Shown here: piece after piece, positions 4,304 through 50,331 of the stretch
How positions within the stretch are numbered: position 1 is the first letter of the stretch
Layout of the letters: each line of letters begins with the position of its first letter
Source of the DNA: a virus
DNA: 64,000 nt
IMG/VR virus record: IMGVR_UViG_3300038701_002786
Coordinates: 15,101 to 79,100 of that record
Strand: one strand, 5' to 3'
Notes under the pieces: model-generated
Seen by the model: the letters and a program-made list of their open reading frames with translations, nothing else
The model's database searches: none
Told to the model about the DNA's origin: nothing
Program-made: the position numbers and the translations under genes

Positions 4304-5102
4304 ATCCGACCAACTCCTTACCAGTTGATGTCACAGCGTAGTATCTTGGCGCTGTGCGTGAGCTGCGCGCACAACTTGCATCATAGTTCAGACCAACCAA
4401 TAGACCGGCCATGGCCATCTGCTGTGTGTGTGTCCATACAGGATCAATGCTGGGCACCACGATGAGATTTCGATAACTGTCTTCTGTGCGATTCATTCCC
4501 AAGGCATGGCGAAGTAGTTCAAGATGAACCCCCTCGACATCCATGGGATCACCTGTACATCTCATGTTGGCCTTGATGCGCTTACTGGTAGAACGACGCC
4601 ACCTTTGAGCCGCATTGCAGGAAGACTGGTAACGCCATTGCCGAGTGTTCTGCCACAGCGCATCATCAATTGCAGGCATTCGCCAACCCAACGACATGGC
4701 ATCACAAACAAACGATGCGTAGTGCTGTCTTTCTGGTAATTGCCACACCTCACGCTGTGCGCGCTCAAGGTGCTTGAGATATTCGACGCCGTACAGAATC
4801 GCGTGTGAAACACCCATCCATTTTTCGTAGAAATAAAATGTCTCCTTGCAACGCTCTTCTGCGCTCAATGAAGGCCACAAAACCCTGCCCACGGCAGCGC
4901 GTACAGCACGAAACGTGCAAGGTGCATACAACTCAAACCGATGAAGTTCATCGCGAAAACTCTCCCACGATGCTTGCTCTTTGAACAGGTAGCGCACCAG
5001 CGTCATGTGATCCCATGGTAAGTCAGGGTCAACATCAATCTCTGTCAACGACTGCAATTGTTGCTGATCTTCTGATGGTCGAAACTGCAAGATGTTGTCC
5101 AT
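4263..5102 (-). CDS. Hypothetical protein with C-terminal 'HALG..YRN' (winged-helix-like) domain
   Basis: C-terminal LRHALG...SYRN...YAVTSTGKELVG is shared with 8366-8614 and 12830-13348. Confidence 0.65.
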   Translation of the reverse strand: MDNILQFRPSEDQQQLQSLTEIDVDPDLPWDHMTLVRYLFKEQASWESFRDELHRFELYAPCTFRAVRAAVGRVLWPSLSAEERCKETFYFYEKWMGVSHAILYGVEYLKHLERAQREVWQLPERQHYASFVCDAMSLGWRMPAIDDALWQNTRQWRYQSSCNAAQRWRRSTSKRIKANMRCTGDPMDVEGVHLELLRHALGMNRTEDSYRNLIVVPSIDPVWTHTQQMAMAGLLVGLNYDASCARSSRTAPRYYAVTSTGKELVGYEQQELDLRAWEA

Positions 5103-5355: not shown

Positions 5356-5715
5356 TCAATTGTTTCGTTTTCGATCTGCCCATTCCTTAAACCCTTCCGG
5401 CAAGGGCCGCCTGTTTTTCTCCGCCCACTCTCTCATTCGTCGGCGGTAAAGAGCGGATTGTTCATATTGCTTTTGCGCGTTTCGGCCACATTCAAACCAG
5501 GGGTATTGGTCACCCCGTGGCCGCCAACTGTATTGACAACCGTAGCAGGTAGCCGTGAACTTTCCGGTGTGTTCAACGTCATCACCATTAATACCGATAC
5601 CGTCTTCTGTTTGCGTATAAGTGAAGACGCCTATCAAGTGCTCATCAATTCTAATATGAGTCGATTTGCATTTCGGGCATTTCTTCGGCTTCCATTTCTG
5701 TGATTTTTCACCCAA
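5356..5715 (-). CDS. Hypothetical zinc-ribbon protein
   Basis: CPKC...CYGC; TTG start inferred after GAGG. Confidence 0.5.
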   Translation of the reverse strand: MGEKSQKWKPKKCPKCKSTHIRIDEHLIGVFTYTQTEDGIGINGDDVEHTGKFTATCYGCQYSWRPRGDQYPWFECGRNAQKQYEQSALYRRRMREWAEKNRRPLPEGFKEWADRKRNN

Positions 5716-5795
5716 AACGAACCTCTTTGATTGTATAGGTCTAAATAGCGATAAATGGGTACTATCATTAGTTAGACCTGATTTACTGCTCAATC

Positions 5796-6023
5796 CTAAC
5801 CGTTCACTTTCAATACGGTTTGATGTTCTTTTCGTCTCTTTTCTGTAGCAATCCTTCGATCGACGCTGAAGCATTCCACGCATCGAGGTTTCATCCTCGA
5901 CATGCACTCAAACATCACGACGTTGCACTTCGGACACGCGGTGCTTTTTTGGCACCCACACGCGTATGGCTTGAACTCTTCCATGGTGCCACACTTGAGA
6001 CAGGCTGGCGATTTGTTGTTCAT
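5796..6023 (-). CDS. Small Cys-rich zinc-finger-like protein (CGC family)
   Basis: CLKC...CGC...CPKC...CVEC. Confidence 0.6.
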   Translation of the reverse strand: MNNKSPACLKCGTMEEFKPYACGCQKSTACPKCNVVMFECMSRMKPRCVECFSVDRRIATEKRRKEHQTVLKVNG

Positions 6024-6033
6024 CGCCCGCTTC

Positions 6034-6327
6034 CTATCGCAATTCCAACAGATCGCGATCCAGCGCAACAAACGCATCCTCTATCGCGATCTCGCAATCC
6101 CACCCAATGTCGCGCGCAGAATTAATAGCCCTGCGCCACAACACATCCGTACCTTGCGTGCCCCTGTGCAACACCCACTCATGGCCGATGTGAGACAACG
6201 TGGCAACCACGACGCCACCGTGGATATAAGCGCAGCCATCCACCCCATGGTGTTCAATGTGCACGCATTCGCCGGTTTTTGATTTGATTTTGCTCACGTC
6301 ATTCATCCCGTCCATCGCTTCCTCCAT
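6034..6327 (-). CDS. Hypothetical protein
   Basis: Co-oriented ORF with a plausible SD. Confidence 0.55.
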   Translation of the reverse strand: MEEAMDGMNDVSKIKSKTGECVHIEHHGVDGCAYIHGGVVVATLSHIGHEWVLHRGTQGTDVLWRRAINSARDIGWDCEIAIEDAFVALDRDLLELR

Positions 6328-6401
6328 TTCTCATCACAACAAAACCAGTTTACGAACATGGGCAATGCCACACCATTGGCAGAAAGGCAGTGCGAACTTG
6401 T

Positions 6402-6614
6402 TCATCGGCATACTCCACACCATCGAACACCATCCTTTTCGCGATGATGAGTCATTGCACATTTTTGGCACATCTTCAGCCTTTTCACACAACCACACTC
6501 AAATCGACGTGTTGTGTTCACAATCCACTTGCGCGCATAACACCATTGGCAGCATTGCCTCAAATATTTGGGTGCAACCTGCTGCGTATCGATCGGTTTA
6601 GTTGCACCGCTCAC
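6402..6614 (-). CDS. Small Cys-rich zinc-finger-like protein (CGC family)
   Basis: CQWC...CGC...CQKC...CGVC. Confidence 0.6.
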   Translation of the reverse strand: MSGATKPIDTQQVAPKYLRQCCQWCYARKWIVNTTRRFECGCVKRLKMCQKCAMTHHREKDGVRWCGVCR

Positions 6615-7384
6615 AAATGCCCCAATCTAATCTTAGTCTGCTTCAGTGCTTGAGAGATTTCAATCCTGTCAGTTGCATAAAAACACCTTACAGTCTCCGC
6701 TTTTGCGGTGCTTTGAATAGCCCCATACCTTTCGACATCCAAAACAATCATTTCCCATGCGTGTTCATCCATACTCCAATCTTGGCATGCGCATGATTCA
6801 ACGCATTCGCACGATTCATGTTTTTCAATAACATCCTCAAAGTAACTTTCATCAGAATCGCCCGCGTAAGGTCGACACAGAGGCAATCTGAACGATGTTT
6901 CAATACTGATTGTAGGACTAGCTCCCCAGGAATCTCCCCAGGAACACGGACTGCGCCGCAACTCAATTGCAGCAAAAATTGCCAAAAACTCAACTACCAA
7001 TAACCATTCACATTCATAACCAGCGTCCAAAATACGTTGATGGAGTTCGTTGGCCGCGCTACACATCCACCATACGACATCGCCTGCATTTGAATGGTCG
7101 TTGTCGCACAGGTTTAGCGAGGCCATAGAGTACCGCATCCAGTGCTCTCTATGTTCATTGGATGCCAAAAGGACGATGCAAACCACAGCGGCAATCTTGA
7201 ACCATTGGTCCTGCTGCACATCAACCAACGCATCATGCAGATAACCAAAACCATCCGGCTTCATCCACGGACACTTTGCAAACAACCATGGCTGATACTT
7301 GCCAGCAAGCCTAGGATAGATACCAAGCATACGGTGGTAATCACCAGACTCGACATCGCTTCTTATTTCTCCGAAATCACTCAT
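6611..7384 (-). CDS. Hypothetical protein
   Basis: 257-aa ORF abutting both neighbours. Confidence 0.6.
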   Translation of the reverse strand: MSDFGEIRSDVESGDYHRMLGIYPRLAGKYQPWLFAKCPWMKPDGFGYLHDALVDVQQDQWFKIAAVVCIVLLASNEHREHWMRYSMASLNLCDNDHSNAGDVVWWMCSAANELHQRILDAGYECEWLLVVEFLAIFAAIELRRSPCSWGDSWGASPTISIETSFRLPLCRPYAGDSDESYFEDVIEKHESCECVESCACQDWSMDEHAWEMIVLDVERYGAIQSTAKAETVRCFYATDRIEISQALKQTKIRLGHL

Positions 7385-10468: not shown

Positions 10469-11063
10469 CCACCATCAAAGTCGACTTCATCACAGTCACA
10501 TCTCGATCCTTAATCACCACAGTGAGCGCTGTATTGAGTCGTTGGATCTCATGTATTGCAGATGACTCAAAATACTCAGCCATTTGCGCCTTGAGCGCTT
10601 CATCCTCACAGGATTCAACGATCAATGATGCAGTTTCCCATCTGTGGAGTTGGACGGCTTCACGAAGCGCGCCAAATTCACCGTGCTCTTCAACACACTG
10701 CATATCCATGCGTCGCAAAACCTCTTGACTGAACCTCACCCAATAATGACGCACTGTAGCCTTGTCTACACCCTTGCGTGATGGGACGATTTTCCTCGTC
10801 ATTTTGTTGATGTAAAATGACCTCTCATAAGGCAATTCAATTGGCGCAAATCGCTCATCAGACAGGTTGAGGTATCGATAGAAATATTGTTCTTGAGAGT
10901 TTCTGGGGGCATCAACGCGCTCCACCAAATACACATCGCCATCAATGACAAAGCGTTGCTGACTCTCTTTCATCTCTTGCAGTTCATGGCCCGACACCCC
11001 GAGCCGCTGCGCAACTGTGGTTGCCTTCATTGGCCTGGAGCGCTCTGCTTTTTCATCATTCAC
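10443..11063 (-). CDS. Hypothetical protein with N-terminal excisionase-like HTH
   Basis: MKATTVAQRLGVSGHELQEM. Confidence 0.55.
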   Translation of the reverse strand: MNDEKAERSRPMKATTVAQRLGVSGHELQEMKESQQRFVIDGDVYLVERVDAPRNSQEQYFYRYLNLSDERFAPIELPYERSFYINKMTRKIVPSRKGVDKATVRHYWVRFSQEVLRRMDMQCVEEHGEFGALREAVQLHRWETASLIVESCEDEALKAQMAEYFESSAIHEIQRLNTALTVVIKDRDVTVMKSTLMVDGVEVECG

Positions 11064-11078
11064 AACACACCCTCTTAT

Positions 11079-16625: not shown

Positions 16626-16646
16626 AGGTGTAAACAGTTTACACCT
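16626..16646. promoter_or_regulatory. Palindrome motif A (AGGTGTAAAC-A-GTTTACACCT)
   Basis: Perfect 10+1+10 inverted repeat between the promoter and the SD. Confidence 0.85.
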
Positions 16647-20671: not shown

Positions 20672-20700
20672 TGTATTAGCCTTGTTGTAAGTTTTATGGT

Positions 20701-20931
20701 CTAGCCTTCAAACTTCTGGCCGCCAAAAAACTTGGCAGCCAGAGCCATATCACTATCACTGGGGTGGATTGGCTCAAGCTCAACAAAGCCAGAGATCTTG
20801 CGAGCCTCTTCTGGTGTCAACGCGCCAGAACCTTCACATGTGTCGCAGTCACTTTGCGCCACAAAGCCCTGCCCATTGCAATGTTTGCATACGACAAAAT
20901 CCATGGGTGTCTCCTGTGGTATTGGACCCAA
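20701..20931 (-). CDS. Small DnaJ-type zinc-finger protein
   Basis: CKHCNGQG...CDTCEGSG. Confidence 0.6.
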   Translation of the reverse strand: MGPIPQETPMDFVVCKHCNGQGFVAQSDCDTCEGSGALTPEEARKISGFVELEPIHPSDSDMALAAKFFGGQKFEG

Positions 20932-20961: not shown

Positions 20962-21002
20962 TTGATGACAATGAGTCTATATATAAAACTCATTGTCATC
21001 AA
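20962..21002 (-). promoter_or_regulatory. sigma70-like promoter TTGATG-17-TAGACT with extended motif B operator
   Basis: 15-bp perfect arms TTGATGACAATGAGT / ACTCATTGTCATCAA; -35 at 21002-20997, -10 at 20979-20974. Confidence 0.8.
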
Positions 21003-31057: not shown

Positions 31058-32244
31058 ACGATTTAACCAAGACTGAATTGAGCAATCAGGTGAAGGCGCT
31101 CGATACTCGCGATGTTGCTGAATGGTTGGGATTGCGCAAACACAGACAAAAACACAAGTGGGGCTGTCCATCGTGCGGAATTGATGGTGATGGCGAAGGC
31201 GACAATCTCAATATTAACGTTGATTCAAAAGGGCCAGGCGCACGTTGTTGGGCATGTGATGCGGTGTTTTCTAATCAGGATCTTGCAATGCATGTGCATG
31301 GCATTGATTTTATGGATGCAACCATGACTATTGCTGATGCGTTTGGCATGCAATATCCAGAGGTTTGGCGCGAGACGTTTGTGCCAAAGCAACTGCCAAA
31401 GGCGACGCCCCGTGTCCACCAGCGTTCAGAGAAACAAGTGCGCGAGGAACCGGATGCTGAAACTGTTGAGCGTTTGTGGTCAAGTCGTCAACAGGTGTTG
31501 GAGCATATGTATTTTGGATGTGAATTGGGTGAACGAGCCAGTGACTATTTGGTAAGCCGCAATCTCGATCCAGGCATGTGCTCGCAATACTCCGGGCTTG
31601 TGAGTGTCGAGAATATCGAACAATGGCAGGCTTTGGCGCGTGAATTTGACAACGACCAGTTGAGCGTTGCTGGTTTGAAGAAGTTGCACTGGTCCAATGT
31701 GTATCCATTTGATGCGCCCTTTTTGGTGTTTCCCTACCTGAATGAACAAGGGCAATTGAATGCGATGCGGTTTGGGGGATTTGCTGAAGGTCGAAAAGAG
31801 GGGCGCCCGAAATATATTGGCCAGGTCTTTGGATGGAATGTACCACAGTACCCATTTGGACTTTCGATGGCCAGTTTTGCAAGGGAGCATGGTCGTGTGT
31901 TGTTTGTCGTTGAAGGGGAGGTCAATACTCTCTCGGTAGCTCAGGTAGGCGAGTGTTGCATCGGTGGATGTGGTGCTGGCAGTTGGTTGAAGGACTGGGG
32001 CAAATATCTTAAAGGGGTACAAGTGGTTGTGCTCGTTGATCCAGACAAGGCTGGGTTGATGTTTGCCAAGAGTGTTTTGGAGTCGATGTTGGAGCATTGC
32101 CCTGAATATATCGAAACGAGGTTCAAGGCGTTTGACTTCCCGCGACCTGGAGGCAAATCCTTGGACGCGAATGATTTATTACAAGATGGTCGATTGGTCG
32201 AAGCGCTGGCCCACTTCAAGCAAAGGTTGGTGTTTGAGGTGTAA
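31054..32244 (+). CDS. DNA primase (zinc finger + TOPRIM)
   Basis: GCPSC...CWACD, VVEGE, LVDPDKAG, DANDLL. Confidence 0.85.
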   Translation: MNDLTKTELSNQVKALDTRDVAEWLGLRKHRQKHKWGCPSCGIDGDGEGDNLNINVDSKGPGARCWACDAVFSNQDLAMHVHGIDFMDATMTIADAFGMQYPEVWRETFVPKQLPKATPRVHQRSEKQVREEPDAETVERLWSSRQQVLEHMYFGCELGERASDYLVSRNLDPGMCSQYSGLVSVENIEQWQALAREFDNDQLSVAGLKKLHWSNVYPFDAPFLVFPYLNEQGQLNAMRFGGFAEGRKEGRPKYIGQVFGWNVPQYPFGLSMASFAREHGRVLFVVEGEVNTLSVAQVGECCIGGCGAGSWLKDWGKYLKGVQVVVLVDPDKAGLMFAKSVLESMLEHCPEYIETRFKAFDFPRPGGKSLDANDLLQDGRLVEALAHFKQRLVFEV

Positions 32245-32257
32245 ACTGTTTACACCT
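32237..32257. promoter_or_regulatory. Palindrome motif A (AGGTGTAAAC-T-GTTTACACCT)
   Basis: Perfect inverted repeat overlapping the primase stop codon. Confidence 0.85.
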
Positions 32258-32309: not shown

Positions 32310-32334
32310 CATGAGTTTACATTTGAGACTCATA
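32310..32334. promoter_or_regulatory. Motif B operator
   Basis: CATGAGTTT-ACATTTG-AGACTCATA just upstream of the Dda-like helicase start. Confidence 0.7.
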
Positions 32335-32343
32335 GAGAAATTC

Positions 32344-33612
32344 ATGCAACTGACTCAAGATCAACAACACGCTGTTGAGCAGGCACATCGTTTCATTCGA
32401 TCCGATGAACAGGCTTTTGGCATCTACGGTGCAGCTGGAACAGGTAAGTCAACGGTAATCCAACGCGTCGTCGACTATCTGCTCAAGCAAAAACAAGAGG
32501 TGTACCTCTGTGCGCCGACACACAAGGCCGTGTCTGTGTTATCGGAAAAGGCACAGGAAGCGGGCCTGAGTGTGTGTACGGAAACGGTGCATAGCATGTT
32601 GAACATGATTTGTTGTCAGGATGATGACAAGGGCGAAGAGTACTTCGCGCCAAATAAGGGCTTCGATGCACCTATCTCTAATGCTGATTGGATCATCATC
32701 GATGAATGTTCGATGCTCGATAGTTTTATTTGGTCGAAAGTCTTGGAGGAAAGTCATCTCAACAAAGTTCGTCTTTTTGTGATGGGCGATAAGTTTCAGT
32801 TACCTCCAGTCCAAGAGTCAACTTCTCCAGCGTTTGAAGTCAATGGAGTTGAGTTGCTAGAGGTGGTTAGGCATACGGGTTATTTGGCGTCTCAAGTGAT
32901 ACAGATTCGAGAGCATATCAATGACCGGAATCCCCCTCTCGCCGCCAATGGTACGGACCCATATGGCGAGGTATTGAATATGACCAAGCCACAGTGGAGA
33001 GACCGATTCTTGGATGATTTGCGGGCTGGCAAAGATGTTATCGCGCTGGCGTGGCGGAACAAAACTGTCAACGCGATCAACGATTACATCCGCGGCAAAC
33101 TCCACGGTGAGGATGCGCCACCATTTTTGCCGGGCGAACCCATTGTGTTTAACTCGCCATACGAACATCCCGAGCTTGAGCGGATGTATCGAAACTCAGA
33201 GAGGCTAGAGATCCTCACTGCAGAATGGACGCAATACAAGTCAACACCTTGCTGGCGCCTTCAACTCAGTGGTGATTGTGATGAGTCGGAAGATGACTCT
33301 TATGTGTACGCGCTGGCACCTGACCAGGAGGCCTATTATCGCGAACAGTGCGATCGTCGCCACAAGATGTACCGGGAATCAGTGAGGCATGGTCGTCAGG
33401 CCGCTAAGAATGCCGCAAAGTTGTACTGGGAGTACAAGAAAGCATTTGCTTTTGTCCGCGTAGACTACGCCACTACCGTGCATAAGAGTCAGGGGTCAAC
33501 CTATGATGCTGTGTATGTTCATCAAACAGATATCCTTGGGGCCAAGCGCGATCGTTCACGGTTGTTGTATGTGGCGTATTCAAGGGCGCGAAATGGATTG
33601 TATTTGATATGA
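32344..33612 (+). CDS. SF1B (Dda/RecD-like) DNA helicase
   Basis: LTQDQQ, GAAGTGKS, CAPTHKA, IIDECSM, GDKFQLPPV, ATTVHKSQGSTY, YVAYSRA. Confidence 0.92.
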   Translation: MQLTQDQQHAVEQAHRFIRSDEQAFGIYGAAGTGKSTVIQRVVDYLLKQKQEVYLCAPTHKAVSVLSEKAQEAGLSVCTETVHSMLNMICCQDDDKGEEYFAPNKGFDAPISNADWIIIDECSMLDSFIWSKVLEESHLNKVRLFVMGDKFQLPPVQESTSPAFEVNGVELLEVVRHTGYLASQVIQIREHINDRNPPLAANGTDPYGEVLNMTKPQWRDRFLDDLRAGKDVIALAWRNKTVNAINDYIRGKLHGEDAPPFLPGEPIVFNSPYEHPELERMYRNSERLEILTAEWTQYKSTPCWRLQLSGDCDESEDDSYVYALAPDQEAYYREQCDRRHKMYRESVRHGRQAAKNAAKLYWEYKKAFAFVRVDYATTVHKSQGSTYDAVYVHQTDILGAKRDRSRLLYVAYSRARNGLYLI

Positions 33613-38330: not shown

Positions 38331-38363
38331 TGGCAATGAATGAGTCTTAAATGTAAACTCATT
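38331..38363 (+). promoter_or_regulatory. sigma70-like promoter TGGCAA-17-TAAACT with embedded motif B
   Basis: AATGAGTCT-TAAATGT-AAACTCATT at 38339-38363. Confidence 0.65.
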
Positions 38364-38399
38364 GGCACAACAAATAGGAAAACAGCGAGGATATACAAT

Positions 38400-39290
38400 A
38401 TGTACCGTATCTTAGGTAAGGCTGCCGATCATCAACAGTGGTTGGAGATGAGGCGTAAAGGCATCGGCGGTTCGGATGCTTCAGCTATTTTGGGTTGCAA
38501 TCCGTTTTCTTCGCATCTCCAAGTTTGGCAGGAGAAACGTTCCACAAGTGTCCCTGTACCGCAAGACACTCCGTATACTCGGTTTGGCTCTTTGGCGGAG
38601 GATTATATTTTAGGGCGTTTGAATGAGCGATACGATGAACTCATTGTAGAGGGCGCTTCACTGGGAACTTTGCAAAGCAAAGCACGACCATGGCAATTGG
38701 CCAACGTGGATGGGAAAGTCCATGAGCAACCAATTGGATTGGAGATCAAAACATGTGACCTATCATCTGCCGAGTGGTGGTCTAATGGTGTTCCTGATTA
38801 TTATTACGCCCAGGTGCAGCACTACATGTCAGTGACGGGTTGGCCGGTCTTTCATGTGTGGCTTATGGTTTGCCCAATGAGCCGCGATAGCGCACTCCAG
38901 ATGTTCGATGAGTTTATCTTGCCGAGTGAGTTTATGGCGAAGTTGGTCGAGGTGAGTGAATTGAGGCAGTTTGTTGTAGATCGGCATGACGACTTCATTT
39001 GCCAACTGAATAGAGCGGAACTCAAATTTTGGGAGTCTGTTTCTGGTGGGTTGACGCCACCAACGCCTCCTAAATGCGTAGATATGCGTTCTGATGATGA
39101 ATTCAAGGGATTGGTTTCATTGTTTATGGCATCGCGCAAACAAGAGCGTGCGCATCGTGACGCAAGAAAGTCTCATCAGGACCAAATCATCAGTTCTCTT
39201 GGGGGCGCCACTAAAGCCTACTTGCCAGATGGTCAGTTAAGTGTCCGCGATGGTGATTGGGGCAAATATATCCAGATCTACAAGTATTGA
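38400..39290 (+). CDS. YqaJ-like viral recombinase / lambda-exonuclease family nuclease
   Basis: WLEMRRKGIGGSDA, ANVDG, LEIKT, YYAQVQHYM. Confidence 0.9.
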   Translation: MYRILGKAADHQQWLEMRRKGIGGSDASAILGCNPFSSHLQVWQEKRSTSVPVPQDTPYTRFGSLAEDYILGRLNERYDELIVEGASLGTLQSKARPWQLANVDGKVHEQPIGLEIKTCDLSSAEWWSNGVPDYYYAQVQHYMSVTGWPVFHVWLMVCPMSRDSALQMFDEFILPSEFMAKLVEVSELRQFVVDRHDDFICQLNRAELKFWESVSGGLTPPTPPKCVDMRSDDEFKGLVSLFMASRKQERAHRDARKSHQDQIISSLGGATKAYLPDGQLSVRDGDWGKYIQIYKY

Positions 39291-39319
39291 CCCTAATGAG
39301 TCTTAAATGTAGACTCATT
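39287..39319 (+). promoter_or_regulatory. sigma70-like promoter TTGACC-17-TAGACT with embedded motif B
   Basis: 39295-39319 is the exact reverse complement of 16663-16687. Confidence 0.8.
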
Positions 39320-39321
39320 CA

Positions 39322-39585
39322 GGACTGAAGCTTTTCTTAGAAGAGGGCGATTGAACGCCCGTTTATTACTTCAGGCGGAGGACAGAACCATGTGACTCCT
39401 TGATTGTTCGGAACCGGGCTTGTTCGATGCCCAATGCCATGTGAAAGGCGATTGTATGATTTATCTGAAACCATTTATCGAGGGCCAAACAATGAAGCGA
39501 TAATAACAAATTTGCCGGGTGCCCGGCGCATAACAATTTAGGAGCAAGGCCCACTCGAAATCGAGTGGGCCTTGCTTGTTGTAGT
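39322..39585 (+). ncRNA. Candidate small RNA / leader (promoter-to-terminator unit without a long ORF)
   Basis: Good promoter, several short hairpins and a strong terminal hairpin; no family recognised. Confidence 0.35.
39543..39585 (+). terminator. Probable intrinsic terminator
   Basis: 16-bp stem AGCAAGGCCCACTCGA / TCGAGTGGGCCTTGCT followed by TGTTGTAGTT (imperfect U tract). Confidence 0.7.
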
Positions 39586-39635
39586 TGCGTTTAATTGGTA
39601 TCAATGCATCAAACTATGAGATAACGAGGTGTAAA

Positions 39636-40445
39636 ATGAAACGTATGTGTGTTGTGTTCTTTGTTTTGTTGGGTGCGTGTTCAGCAGGGACTGACTCGCC
39701 TATGCGGGGGCCAGACATCCCTGTGGCTTTGGACATGGTTGATATGTCCTCAGATCAACCATCGAATCCGGTTGACATGTTGGATATGGTGTCTGATGCA
39801 GATAGCGATATACCAGATGTCGATATGGTTCGCTCTGAAGGGTTTGGTGCGATCAGTGGCCAGTGCGATGTTTTGGGCGTAGAACTAACAGCTGCTTCAG
39901 GGGTTTTGCGCGTTAATTCTATAGATTTTGGGGACGACCCGTATGACGATGAGGACAAGGATCTTTTGACGATGGGTGGTCAGGAAATCATCGATGATGG
40001 CAATGCTGGTGGGTCGTCTGTGTTGAGTGAGGTTTTTTCGTTCGAAGTGCTTCAGCGCTGTGAAGGAGCGACACTGTTGAAAACAGAGACAGAGATCGAA
40101 TACAAAATGCAGGGTAAGATTACTGATCTACTGGTGCAAATTGATGGCGTGAAAATTGGCGTGAGTGTGACTCGGGCCGTTAAGTTCCCGCGAGACCAGG
40201 TGACAATGTTCGAATATTCACGCGCGCGTACTTTACTGGAGAAGAAGTTGGGCGATGTCTTGCTCAGCAGTGCCAATGTAGCAATGGGCGACTTATGGTC
40301 AAAGCAGATATTGCACGTATTGGCATACGATCGACAACATGCCGATGTCATCCAGGATGCCTATAATGACATCGGCGTTGACTTGACTGCGGATACCATT
40401 GTTCTGGTAACCATTACTGATGGGCAGGATGAGTTCATCTATTAG
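39636..40445 (+). CDS. Lipoprotein with acidic linker and conserved 'GGSSxxSE...GVSVTRA' domain
   Basis: Signal peptide with lipobox LGAC; D-rich D(M/I)-type linker. Confidence 0.75.
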   Translation: MKRMCVVFFVLLGACSAGTDSPMRGPDIPVALDMVDMSSDQPSNPVDMLDMVSDADSDIPDVDMVRSEGFGAISGQCDVLGVELTAASGVLRVNSIDFGDDPYDDEDKDLLTMGGQEIIDDGNAGGSSVLSEVFSFEVLQRCEGATLLKTETEIEYKMQGKITDLLVQIDGVKIGVSVTRAVKFPRDQVTMFEYSRARTLLEKKLGDVLLSSANVAMGDLWSKQILHVLAYDRQHADVIQDAYNDIGVDLTADTIVLVTITDGQDEFIY

Positions 40446-40450
40446 ATTCA

Positions 40451-42340
40451 TTACCAAAGGACAACTGGTTGGTCTGCCGGTTCGTTTGTTTCGTCGCCCA
40501 AGGCTTCCAGGGTTGAAACTGGGATGCCTAACCCCAAGCCTCCGTAAGAGTTACTGCCCCAGCAGTACACATTGCCATCTTCTACGAGCGCGCATGTTCT
40601 GTAGAACCCAGCTTCAACCTGAACAACTTTTCCCGGCAGCAGCACTGGAAAGGTGGGGTTTCGAGTGCCGGTTGTGTTGCCAAGGCCCAGTGCCCCATTG
40701 AAATTGTTGCCCCAGCAATACACTCGGCCCGCGAGATCGATTGCGCATGTGTGTTGATAGCCCGCTGACACATCTACAGCACCAAATTGGAGCGGTACTT
40801 CAATTGGCGGCATTTCAGCTGGCCCATCACCAATGTCATTGTTGTTTCCAATGCCAAGTTGTCCAAATTCATTTCTTCCCCAACACTGGACTTTGTCATT
40901 GTTGGTGATGATGCATGTATGTTCATATCCTGCATCAATGGTTTTTGCATTGCTGATACTGATTTGGCCCGTGATGGGTTTGTTGGATAAGCCTATATTG
41001 TCTTGGTGGCCCAGGCCGAGTTCGCCAAACTCGTTTCTGCCCCAACACGTAACATCGCCTGAATTGAATAGAACACACGCATGTTCATCGCCGACTGCCA
41101 ATTCTTTGACATTGCTGGCGAGTACGTTGGGTTGTAGCGGATAATCTTCAGCGTTTCTACCTAGGGTCGGGGTATCTTGGTTGAGTCCTAGTTGTCCATA
41201 TTGATTGGAGCCCCAACATGTGACTTGGCCTGTTGTCAAAAGGGCGCACGTAAATAGTTCGCCTTGTTGGACATCTGTTACTGTGGTCGTCAGTTCAACA
41301 GTTTCAAAGACATCGGAGGTTGAGTCTCCAATTGCTTGCTCACCGTTGACGACGCCTGCTTTGGCTAGTGTATTGGCACCCCAACAGACTGCCTTATCAT
41401 CAGGTGTTACTGCACATGTATTGGCTCCTGTAGATTGGCCCATTCTTTTGCCAAAAACTTTAGCGCTCTTGAGCGGTACGCTCGCCGGAGACTCTCCTTG
41501 TGGGGTAGTGTTCAGCAGAGCAAGTTGACCGGAGTTGTTGCTGCCCCAACACCTTAGTTTGGTGTTGTTCAGGCGTGCGCAGATATGATTGAGGCCCATT
41601 GCGATTTCAATGGCAGCCAGCCTCCATCCTGCGACGTATTCAGTGATGTATGCGTCTTGACCAGGATGTTGAGTGATTTGGGCTCGGTATAGACGTTGTT
41701 CCCCATTTGGAAGCGCAGTAATGTCGGTGGTTGAGGTCAATAACTGCCATTGGTTGCCATTGTCTGAATATTCAAATGATATAGCCATATTGGTTTCAAG
41801 GCGCCCTTCAATCACGTCACTGGTCAGCCCAGGTCGGTCGAACGTGTCGATCGCTCGGACCACATATTGGTGTTTTTTTGGCTCGATGACTTGGATGTTA
41901 TCAAGTCCAATTGCAACATGAGCTCTATATTCACCTTTGGACGCCTTAACCGTTGCTGTTTGAATTGTGCCCAGGTTAGCGTTTTGATCTTTGTATATTG
42001 TATCCAAGCCAAGATCGAGCCATGTGCCGTTGAGACAATCAGGAGAAGCGTCTTTGCAAATTTGATACTTAGTTGCCCCAGGAATTCCGCGCCATGTCAG
42101 TTGTATATGGCTTGTTGTGGCCTCAAGCTCAACGACAGGCGCTTGGAGCGTAGATGGCAATGTGTCTGCGTCCACATCCGATGTGATGTCATTGGCGGCG
42201 TCAGATGGCATATCGACGGCATCAATCATGTCGATTCTTACATCCCACTCCTCATTGTAGTTGTTGGGGTTCTCAAACAAAGTGCAGCCAGACACCAGTA
42301 GAAATAAAATACCAATTGTAAAAAGCTTCATATTCACCAC
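40451..42340 (-). CDS. RCC1-repeat (beta-propeller) lipoprotein with FN3-like region
   Basis: Lipobox VSGC; about 7 repeats of H.CA...G...CWG.N..GQLG. Confidence 0.88.
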   Translation of the reverse strand: MVNMKLFTIGILFLLVSGCTLFENPNNYNEEWDVRIDMIDAVDMPSDAANDITSDVDADTLPSTLQAPVVELEATTSHIQLTWRGIPGATKYQICKDASPDCLNGTWLDLGLDTIYKDQNANLGTIQTATVKASKGEYRAHVAIGLDNIQVIEPKKHQYVVRAIDTFDRPGLTSDVIEGRLETNMAISFEYSDNGNQWQLLTSTTDITALPNGEQRLYRAQITQHPGQDAYITEYVAGWRLAAIEIAMGLNHICARLNNTKLRCWGSNNSGQLALLNTTPQGESPASVPLKSAKVFGKRMGQSTGANTCAVTPDDKAVCWGANTLAKAGVVNGEQAIGDSTSDVFETVELTTTVTDVQQGELFTCALLTTGQVTCWGSNQYGQLGLNQDTPTLGRNAEDYPLQPNVLASNVKELAVGDEHACVLFNSGDVTCWGRNEFGELGLGHQDNIGLSNKPITGQISISNAKTIDAGYEHTCIITNNDKVQCWGRNEFGQLGIGNNNDIGDGPAEMPPIEVPLQFGAVDVSAGYQHTCAIDLAGRVYCWGNNFNGALGLGNTTGTRNPTFPVLLPGKVVQVEAGFYRTCALVEDGNVYCWGSNSYGGLGLGIPVSTLEALGDETNEPADQPVVLW

Positions 42341-49094: not shown

Positions 49095-50318
49095 GTGAGT
49101 GTGCAAGAAATCAGTATCTCCAAATTGACGCTCGATCCTGAGCGCCAAATGCGCGTCCACGGATGCCGTCGACTTGTTGTTAAGAAATATGCGGATGCTC
49201 TTGAGCAAGGCGCTGAGTTTCCTCCAATTATTGTTGTGAAGATCGACAAAGAGTTTGTTGTGTGTGATGGATTTCATCGCATATCAGCGCACGAATCATT
49301 GGGTCTTAAAAAGATCAAGGCGTCCATTGAAGAGGGCGACGAAGTGTTGGCCATGGAGCGTTCATTTGCTGCAAATGGTGCTCATGGCGAGTCCAGGTCG
49401 AAAGAAGATGAAGAGATGGCGTTGATGAAGATGATTGCGCACCCCGTCATTGGCCAGCGCTCATTGCGCGATCTGGGCAAACTCGTTGGGTTGAGCCACA
49501 CCAAAGTTAGCCAAGTCAGAAGGCAGATGGAAGCATCGGGCCTGATTGAGCCCAAAATACAAACGTTGGGCAAAGACAATAAAATGTATCCTGTTAAAAG
49601 CGTGAATGCCCCCGCGGAGGATGTCAACGATTTGGTTGAAGTTGAACGCCCTCAATTTGCTACTGCAATGCCGCCTGACCAACAGGAGAGAAACACACAC
49701 ACAACAAACATTTTACTCTCAAGCAAAAGCAATGAGTGGTATTCGGGCGATGAGCGTTTGTTGAAGGTTTTACATGGCTTCTTTAAGGATGGGATCGACC
49801 TCGACCCAGCCAGTTGCGCATACGCCAATGAAACCTTCATCAAAGCAGCGCGTTTTTACAGCGAAGAAGATGATGGATTGAGCCAACCATGGGACGCTGA
49901 GCGACTTTGGTGCAACCCACCGTATGGTTTGGATGACGAACATCAATCCAATATGGGCAAGTGGTCGTCGCGTTGGTTGGATTCAGTTGGGAACATTGGA
50001 GAGAGCGTAGAAGACATCCTGGATGCAGGGATGTTTGTTGAGGGTTTACTCCTTGTGAATGCTTTTGTGGGTGCCAAGTGGTTTGAGCGACTTTGGAGTG
50101 AGGCATTCATTTGTTTCCCCAACTTTCGCCTCAAACATAAAAAGGCGCCTTGGATGAAGCAAAAGGACCAACCATCACACTTCAGTGCCATTTCTTATGT
50201 TGGCCCTCGATATGATGAATTCAAACGCGCTTTTTCCGTACTTGGTCGAATTGTGCCCCCTTCTGAGACCTTTTGTGGCCATTCAATCAATCACGAATTG
50301 ATACTTGAAAAGGTGTAA
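49095..50318 (+). CDS. ParB-N/HTH fused to phage DNA N6-adenine methyltransferase
   Basis: N-terminal VCDGFHRISA; C-terminal SNEWY, IDLDPAS, LWCNPPYG. Confidence 0.85.
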   Translation: MSVQEISISKLTLDPERQMRVHGCRRLVVKKYADALEQGAEFPPIIVVKIDKEFVVCDGFHRISAHESLGLKKIKASIEEGDEVLAMERSFAANGAHGESRSKEDEEMALMKMIAHPVIGQRSLRDLGKLVGLSHTKVSQVRRQMEASGLIEPKIQTLGKDNKMYPVKSVNAPAEDVNDLVEVERPQFATAMPPDQQERNTHTTNILLSSKSNEWYSGDERLLKVLHGFFKDGIDLDPASCAYANETFIKAARFYSEEDDGLSQPWDAERLWCNPPYGLDDEHQSNMGKWSSRWLDSVGNIGESVEDILDAGMFVEGLLLVNAFVGAKWFERLWSEAFICFPNFRLKHKKAPWMKQKDQPSHFSAISYVGPRYDEFKRAFSVLGRIVPPSETFCGHSINHELILEKV

Positions 50319-50331
50319 ACTGTTTACACCT
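50311..50331. promoter_or_regulatory. Palindrome motif A (AGGTGTAAAC-T-GTTTACACCT)
   Basis: Perfect inverted repeat overlapping the MTase stop codon, upstream of recU. Confidence 0.85.

Follow-up and report, generated by a model that had tools for sequence, protein, structure and literature searches.

Which role could be played by a 345-nt gap (positions 39291-39635) which separates an exonuclease gene from a lipoprotein gene in a phage genome, opens with a promoter and contains a long hairpin? The stretch of DNA that we analyzed, in the following the window, comprises 64,000 nucleotides and was taken from a virus record of IMG/VR, of which it covers bases 15101-79100; the record has a length of 81.5 kb and is estimated to be 64% complete. 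Genes of DNA metabolism surround the gap, namely those for a MazG-like protein, a thymidylate kinase, a DUF4326 protein, an HTH protein and the RecE/YqaJ-type exonuclease. On the other side an operon encoding an RCC1-lipoprotein, an adaptor and a Ser/Thr kinase runs on the minus strand and converges on the lipoprotein gene, and only 5 nt lie between the end of the lipoprotein gene (plus strand, 40445) and the end of the RCC1 gene (minus strand, 40451). The lipoprotein has more than 900 homologues, and since these are mostly from Myxococcota, Persicimonas included, the host of the phage probably belongs to a Myxococcota-like group. The elements which delimit the locus are the following.

38340-39290, plus strand: open reading frame of the RecE/YqaJ-type exonuclease, with its stop codon TGA at 39288-39290
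39287-39315, plus strand: sigma-70-like promoter, TTGACC-17-TAGACT, with 9/12 consensus matches and the same layout as at the other copies of motif B
39287-39292, plus strand: -35 element TTGACC, overlapping the exonuclease stop codon
39296-39318, unstranded: motif B, a 23-bp palindrome ATGAGTCT-N7-AGACTCAT, covering the spacer and the -10 element
39310-39315, plus strand: -10 element TAGACT
39322-39577, plus strand: predicted transcript of about 255 nt, its start placed from the -10 element and its end from the hairpin
39542-39577, unstranded: 16-bp GC-rich hairpin (stem 39543-39576) with 10 GC pairs and U-rich flanks on both strands
39636-40445, plus strand: lipoprotein gene (269 aa, lipobox LLGAC), the downstream neighbour of the predicted unit

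The sequence is listed as present in two sequencing runs, both of DNA, and in no RNA run. Two samples from different studies yielded contigs identical to the window. The Logan unitigs of a source-like run break at 38340-38362 and 39295-39316, both copies of motif B, and at 39545-39589, the hairpin, and one Logan contig connects 38362 to 39295 via 15.6 kb of other sequence. These breaks and the 15.6-kb join are an assembly-graph effect of repeats and not a structural variant.

A preliminary description of this DNA had proposed a strong promoter with motif B at 39287-39315. Both elements are found there and exceed chance, as the palindrome is present in six copies in the 64-kb window when up to three mismatches are allowed and shuffled sequences give none. 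The copy at 39296 is a perfect consensus with 0 mismatches. All five other copies sit 35-100 nt upstream of a gene start, the genes being a 189-aa gene, a small zinc-finger gene and the genes for ribonucleotide reductase, the helicase and the exonuclease; the copy at 39296 is alone in having no ORF within about 100 nt. Although the start of the longest exonuclease ORF lies inside the copy of motif B at 38340, the product as called comprises 296 aa and fits a start at 38400, and this copy is therefore upstream promoter/operator DNA and not coding. In the copy at 32311-32333 the asymmetric centre has the opposite orientation with respect to the helicase gene, which starts downstream at 32344. 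Thus the palindromic arms and not the centre appear to be the constrained part of motif B, which matches the expectation for the operator of a dimeric regulator, and we regard motif B as the probable operator of a regulator. The repressor control claimed in the preliminary description is something we infer from the position of the palindrome over the -10 element.

Some further observations concern these promoter regions. The motif-B copy at 20971 is followed by a good SD and then by an unlisted small ORF (20700-20903, minus strand) without a long leader; this ORF is rich in CxxC/CxxCxGxG and zinc-finger-like. An identical 21-bp hairpin, AGGTGTAAAC-W-GTTTACACCT, is present at 16626-16646, 32237-32257 and 50311-50331. 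Two of the three copies adjoin copies of motif B, one of these two directly after a stop codon, and the element could be a terminator or a second operator. A search of viral contigs with the motif-B pattern returned one match, an unrelated AT-rich coding sequence. A sigma-54 promoter at 39411-39425 was dismissed by eye, the -12 element being GT and not GC.

The terminal 16-bp hairpin is also at the place where it had been described and likewise exceeds chance: no perfect hairpin of the 64-kb window is longer than the stem 39543-39576 (z -5.4). Its tail, GTTGTAGTTG, passes a lenient terminator scan with an imperfect U-run. We treat the element at 39542-39577 as a predicted bidirectional terminator. 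No minus-strand terminator-like site was seen in the lipoprotein interval (39577-40451) ahead of the hairpin as read from 39576 to 39543, and transcripts of the RCC1 operon would therefore cross the whole lipoprotein gene in antisense direction.

Between the promoter and the hairpin we considered the following elements, all on the plus strand.

39325-39330 and 39369-39374: CTGAAG/CTTCAG pair enclosing CTTTTC/GAAGAG and GGGCG/CGCCC
39345-39375: small GC hairpin GGGCG/CGCCC plus GTTTATTACTTCAGG, which aligns with GCGCC/GGCGC plus ACATTTATGACTCAAG of the relative L006 described below
39377-39396: conserved core, consisting of the SD GGAGG (39377-39381), an 8-nt spacer, ATG (39390-39392), TGA (39393-39395) and C
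39396-39503: stop-free frame of 35 codons, in frame with ATG-TGA, ending in TAA TAA and including a 15-aa ATG ORF from 39456
39480-39506: second mini-ORF, consisting of the SD GAGGG (39480-39484), 7 nt and ATG AAG CGA TAA TAA (39492-39506)
39514-39527: GCCGGG/CCCGGC

That the predicted transcript contains no long ORF was borne out. The conventional ORFs in the gap score between -0.05 and +0.03 per codon, compared with 0.118 +/- 0.047 for real genes, none of them carries a coding signal and no ORF of the gap is present in a collection of 15 billion proteins. The earlier statement that the longest plausible peptides comprise 15 and 35 aa is correct for ATG starts but not overall: the gap also contains a TTG-start ORF of 45 aa and minus-strand ORFs of 45-62 aa, all without a coding signal. 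The inner hairpins are at the positions described but do not rise above chance. The 220-nt body (39322-39541) folds no better than shuffles (z -0.44), the 5′ domain has a z of -0.78 and the fold of the minus strand is no worse than that of the plus strand. Judged by its fold against shuffles, the predicted RNA is neither compactly structured nor a structured non-coding RNA. A similar outcome was obtained for the repeated sequence CCATGTGA: its second copy is indeed found at 39437-39444, but two exact 8-mer repeat pairs in 345 nt compare with about 0.9 expected from an arithmetic estimate, which is chance level. By eye, a CsrA-type decoy was rejected, about 4-5 GGA in 260 nt being the chance expectation, and so was a +1 frameshift or gene-60-type bypass, there being no upstream ORF and no conserved landing frame.

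A search with the exonuclease in 5.8 billion clusters yielded one syntenic relative, locus L006 on a 61-kb Logan contig. Its exonuclease is 46% identical to that of the window; the next matches after it lie in unrelated neighbourhoods. In their coding DNA the two phages share 57-66% identity, and non-coding DNA that is unconstrained would therefore be expected to be unalignable. In L006 the exonuclease stop is separated by 153 nt from the convergent RCC1 stop, and no lipoprotein gene lies between them. The two gaps have one patch in common, AGGA-CA-GAACCATGTGAC in the window and AGGA-TT-GAACCATGTGAC at 10995-11012 of L006, with 16/18 bases identical. The score of the best local alignment of the two gaps was reached by 4 of 2000 dinucleotide shuffles, i.e. 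a p of about 0.002 from one relative, which is modest for a pattern defined post hoc.

The L006 gap contains the small GC hairpin GCGCC/GGCGC. The sequence ACATTTATGACTCAAG in this gap matches the centre and the right arm of motif B, its reverse complement being identical to the window motif at 13/14 positions. It also aligns with that phage's own promoters, with a -35 element TTGCGC that resembles the TTGCGT of another promoter of this phage, at position 4915 of locus L008. In this copy the right arm GACTCAA is intact and the -10 element is imperfect, as either T-12/A-11 or T-7 is lost. The L006 patch thus looks as if preceded by a degenerate promoter of the same class or by a promoter remnant, or it may simply lie within the exonuclease 3′ UTR. 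Downstream of the patch follow 28 A/U-rich nucleotides and then a hairpin at 11040-11067. Its base AAGGCC/GGCCTT is identical to that of the window hairpin, and its upper stem is changed on both sides and still pairs; judged from these stems the two hairpins are homologous and the stem changes compensated. The shared patch and hairpin in the two gaps (4/2000 shuffles) point to a conserved plan consisting of a promoter or its remnant, an SD, AUG-UGA-C and a bidirectional terminator. The window has about 57 additional nt ahead of the patch and about 145 behind it, and these are not conserved. The preliminary description had taken a lack of conservation in relatives as an argument against the candidate RNA; the start-stop patch and the hairpin are kept in L006, other internal details are not. 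Among the latter is the second minigene, which is present in the window as described, with GAGGG ahead of ATG AAG CGA TAA TAA at 39492, but is not conserved in the relative. In L008 the lipoprotein homologue (5924-6735) probably starts at 5924, where it has a MRKHTHFFFFLLFFSGC lipobox, and not at the called position 6001, and an uncalled ORF of about 73 aa (5631-5851) fills most of the gap upstream of it.

In both phages the start codon of the patch directly abuts a stop codon (39390-39395 in the window and 11006-11011 in L006). The SD spacing, GGAGG with 8 nt in the window and AAGGA with 7 nt in L006, matches that of genuine genes of both phages, and in the predicted folds of both RNAs the SD and the AUG are about half unpaired. 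An SD followed by ATG-TGA is expected by chance about once per 64 kb. Hence the site noted in the preliminary description is present and kept in the only relative, but taken alone it is at chance level. A GUG frame overlapping the start-stop closes after 3 codons in the window and runs through the terminator in L006, and reinitiation would therefore proceed without a conserved product.

The searches for known families and further relatives gave no counterpart. With Rfam release 15 the whole window matched only a tRNA elsewhere at the gathering score, and at an E of up to 10 the region 39200-39700 gave only terminator look-alikes. The best of these was Thr_leader, with 30.8 bits against a gathering score of 55 and on the terminator alone; thus the Rfam check proposed in the preliminary description did not assign the candidate RNA to a family. 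Apart from the tRNA elsewhere in the window, neither the region nor the remainder of the 81.5-kb record nor L006/L008 gave a tRNA or tmRNA, and no suppressor tRNA was detected in any of them. Blastn against a phage collection gave no match. The exonuclease protein and a two-sequence profile detected only distant relatives (<=39%) with other neighbourhoods in viral and metagenome contigs, and the RCC1 profile had no match in viral contigs. A 16-base pattern of the patch matched viral contigs 25 times, a count at chance level, always in coding sequence of unrelated phages. In distant relatives a minus-strand gene of 65-66 aa follows the exonuclease, and it shows no similarity to the gap of the window.

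We tentatively favour, at somewhat less than even confidence, a small stand-alone RNA, or a shared 3′ region, whose functional core is the AUGUGA start-stop. The locus would then be transcribed as a short non-coding unit that flanks the RecE/YqaJ-type exonuclease gene on its 3′ side. Its promoter, carrying the shared palindromic operator and belonging to the class which precedes DNA-metabolism genes, would start an RNA near 39322, and this RNA would end at the bidirectional hairpin terminator 39542-39577. It would contain one constrained internal element, an SD followed by AUG-UGA-C, on which a ribosome would initiate and at once terminate. The RNA would act via this ribosome engagement, whether by parking a ribosome, as a translation gate or as a decoy, and neither a product nor its folding would matter. 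The lipoprotein gene would later have been inserted behind the terminator, and read-through transcripts would double as its leader. We favour a ribosome-engaging RNA because the sole constrained internal sequence resembles a translation start that is closed at once, and because of the literature on start-stops discussed below. Transcription, the transcript ends, ribosome loading and a downstream effect are all steps that we infer from the sequence, and any particular downstream effect could be named only with low confidence. Against the favoured reading speak the imperfect U-tract after the hairpin and the possibility that the conserved 18-mer is a DNA site or an RNA seed, and we know of no mechanism whereby a single start-stop on a free RNA benefits a phage. 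A bolder and more doubtful form of this reading is a one-codon stand-alone phage 'gene' with a conserved content limited to the ribosome-binding site and AUG-UGA-C. It would be switched on with the DNA-metabolism genes, load ribosomes and, at the weak stop UGA-C, use up initiator tRNA and RF2; this might, for example, retune translation in the host, or protect the RNA or mark it.

Each of the five other motif-B sites precedes a gene, and the lipoprotein gene is the next gene on the same strand. This would fit a 5′ leader of the lipoprotein mRNA, in which the motif-B promoter serves the lipoprotein gene, the hairpin is a partial terminator/attenuator or a stabilising structure, and small ORFs or alternative pairings set the read-through. 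There is no promoter of >=9/12 in 39577-39635, between the hairpin and the lipoprotein ATG, the imperfect U-tract makes read-through plausible, and a 24-nt long-range pairing (39396-39419 with 39521-39544, 75% complementary) reaches the hairpin base. We consider such a leader unlikely, however. No plus-strand gene follows the patch and the hairpin in L006, and therefore the conserved element is not a dedicated lipoprotein leader. The lipoprotein homologue of the L006 phage (61% identical) is found on the same contig but at its far end, where unrelated sequence precedes it, and no similar leader was found at the host lipoprotein loci. The Thr_leader match covers nothing but the terminator, and the start-stop is about 150 nt away from the hairpin, which is too far for steric coupling. 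A run of regulatory codons, as in leader-peptide attenuators, is absent, and the element is not conserved together with the lipoprotein gene. The lipoprotein attenuator put forward in the preliminary description is thus disfavoured. As the lipoprotein gene lies between the hairpin and the RCC1 stop and has no strong promoter, its transcription would depend on read-through of the hairpin or else on its own weak promoter. The same arrangement, in which the gene fits between the hairpin and the RCC1 stop with 5 nt to spare, shows rearrangement and agrees with a further explanation that we regard as unlikely, namely that the gap has no RNA function and is a rearrangement scar. The scar would combine a duplicated promoter/operator with a bidirectional terminator that ancestrally separated the convergent operons of the exonuclease and of RCC1, and the 18-mer would be a protein site at the DNA level or a vestige. 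Indeed the L006 hairpin, 7 nt past the RCC1 stop and with a T-tract on the minus strand, is clearly the terminator of the RCC1 operon, the body shows no fold signal and several features of the preliminary description are at chance level. On the other hand, one would hardly expect a protein-less gap of 345 nt behind an operator/promoter with 0 mismatches to be neutral when the phage genome is dense, and the 18-mer is not palindromic and does not recur above chance elsewhere in either phage.

The L006 version of the RNA, about 85 nt with a conserved 5′ segment, an A/U-rich linker and a terminator hairpin, has the typical layout of a base-pairing small RNA. The patch, which is about half unpaired, would then be a single-stranded seed for a host or phage RNA, the A/U-rich stretch and the terminator hairpin would together bind a chaperone, and it would be a coincidence that the patch looks like a ribosome-binding site. 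Since seeds usually resemble the anti-SD and not an SD plus AUG, and since the best complementarity in the phage window is 13 nt (E = 0.2, not above chance), we judge a base-pairing small RNA to be quite improbable. Still less probable is a gene for a small protein of 37 codons (39390-39503) with TGA as second codon, i.e. a pseudogene or a case of recoding read-through. The ATG-TGA, the 15-aa ATG ORF and ATG AAG CGA TAA TAA share one common frame, in which the strong SD and ATG are followed by 35 stop-free codons ending in TAA TAA. The codon usage of this frame (0.089 per codon) is comparable to that of real genes (0.081 +/- 0.088) and differs from that of stop-free wrong frames (-0.077 +/- 0.096), 6% of which score as well; the likelihood ratio is about 5. 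An assembly error does not account for the TGA because identical contigs were obtained from two samples of different studies. But TGA is the main stop codon of the phage (17/22 long genes), the 81.5-kb record and L006/L008 contain no suppressor tRNA, and in L006 the ATG-TGA-C frame closes after 6 more codons and is without similarity. A selenoprotein gene was rejected: the 53 nt after the UGA, at -9 kcal/mol and z +0.63, do not form a SECIS-like hairpin. A HMMER search of 1.84 billion representatives returned only repeat proteins which match HVKGDC many times and are spurious.

If the favoured reading is true, this phage of a poorly studied, Myxococcota-like host group would suggest a wider use of ribosome-loading RNAs by phages, and the unit of about 85 nt in the relative would offer a minimal model for what a start-stop does alone. 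Should the locus prove to be no more than a leader or the scar of a rearrangement, it would be an ordinary finding.

To our knowledge bacterial start-stop sites are known only as tuning elements within genes or at gene starts, and phage minigenes mainly from lambda bar. Ambiguous start-stop sites of the type AUGUGA/GUGUGA have been described, of which AUGUGA supports an RF2-dependent termination-reinitiation at the overlapping GUG (PMC9841429), and upstream ribosome-binding sites can act by occlusion (PMC13285730). In E. coli start-stops, e.g. in yecJ and hslR, bind ribosomes and modulate expression, slightly repressing the host gene (Meydan et al., bioRxiv 10.1101/520783). Whereas each of these E. 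coli sites tunes the gene within which, or at whose start, it is found, the phage site, as read from its sequence, belongs to a unit that encodes no protein and has a promoter and a terminator of its own, and in L006 nothing follows downstream.

For lambda bar to be toxic, a peptidyl-tRNA with an elongator tRNA has to drop off. The conserved AUG-UGA differs in that it has no sense codon after the AUG, and therefore no elongator tRNA would be there to sequester. We rejected a toxic minigene of the lambda bar type, as L006 lacks the sole mini-ORF that has sense codons (39492-39506). What the locus has in common with lambda bar and with engineered minigenes of 2-8 codons (PMC2490762) is the format of phage-borne, SD-led, ultra-short frames on a non-coding RNA. 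The three-codon second mini-ORF, AUG AAG CGA UAA UAA, also has the minigene format and is not conserved.

Type I 3′-UTR small RNAs such as DapZ and MicL are promoter-to-terminator RNAs which share the 3′ end of a gene. The phage unit differs from them in that no target was found within the phage and that it has no seed-like anti-SD sequence. It resembles them in having its promoter right where the upstream gene ends and in a predicted RNA that ends at the terminator which also closes that operon. Start-stops, minigenes and promoter-to-terminator small RNAs are thus already known, and the novelty would lie in a conserved start-stop on its own promoter-to-terminator unit.
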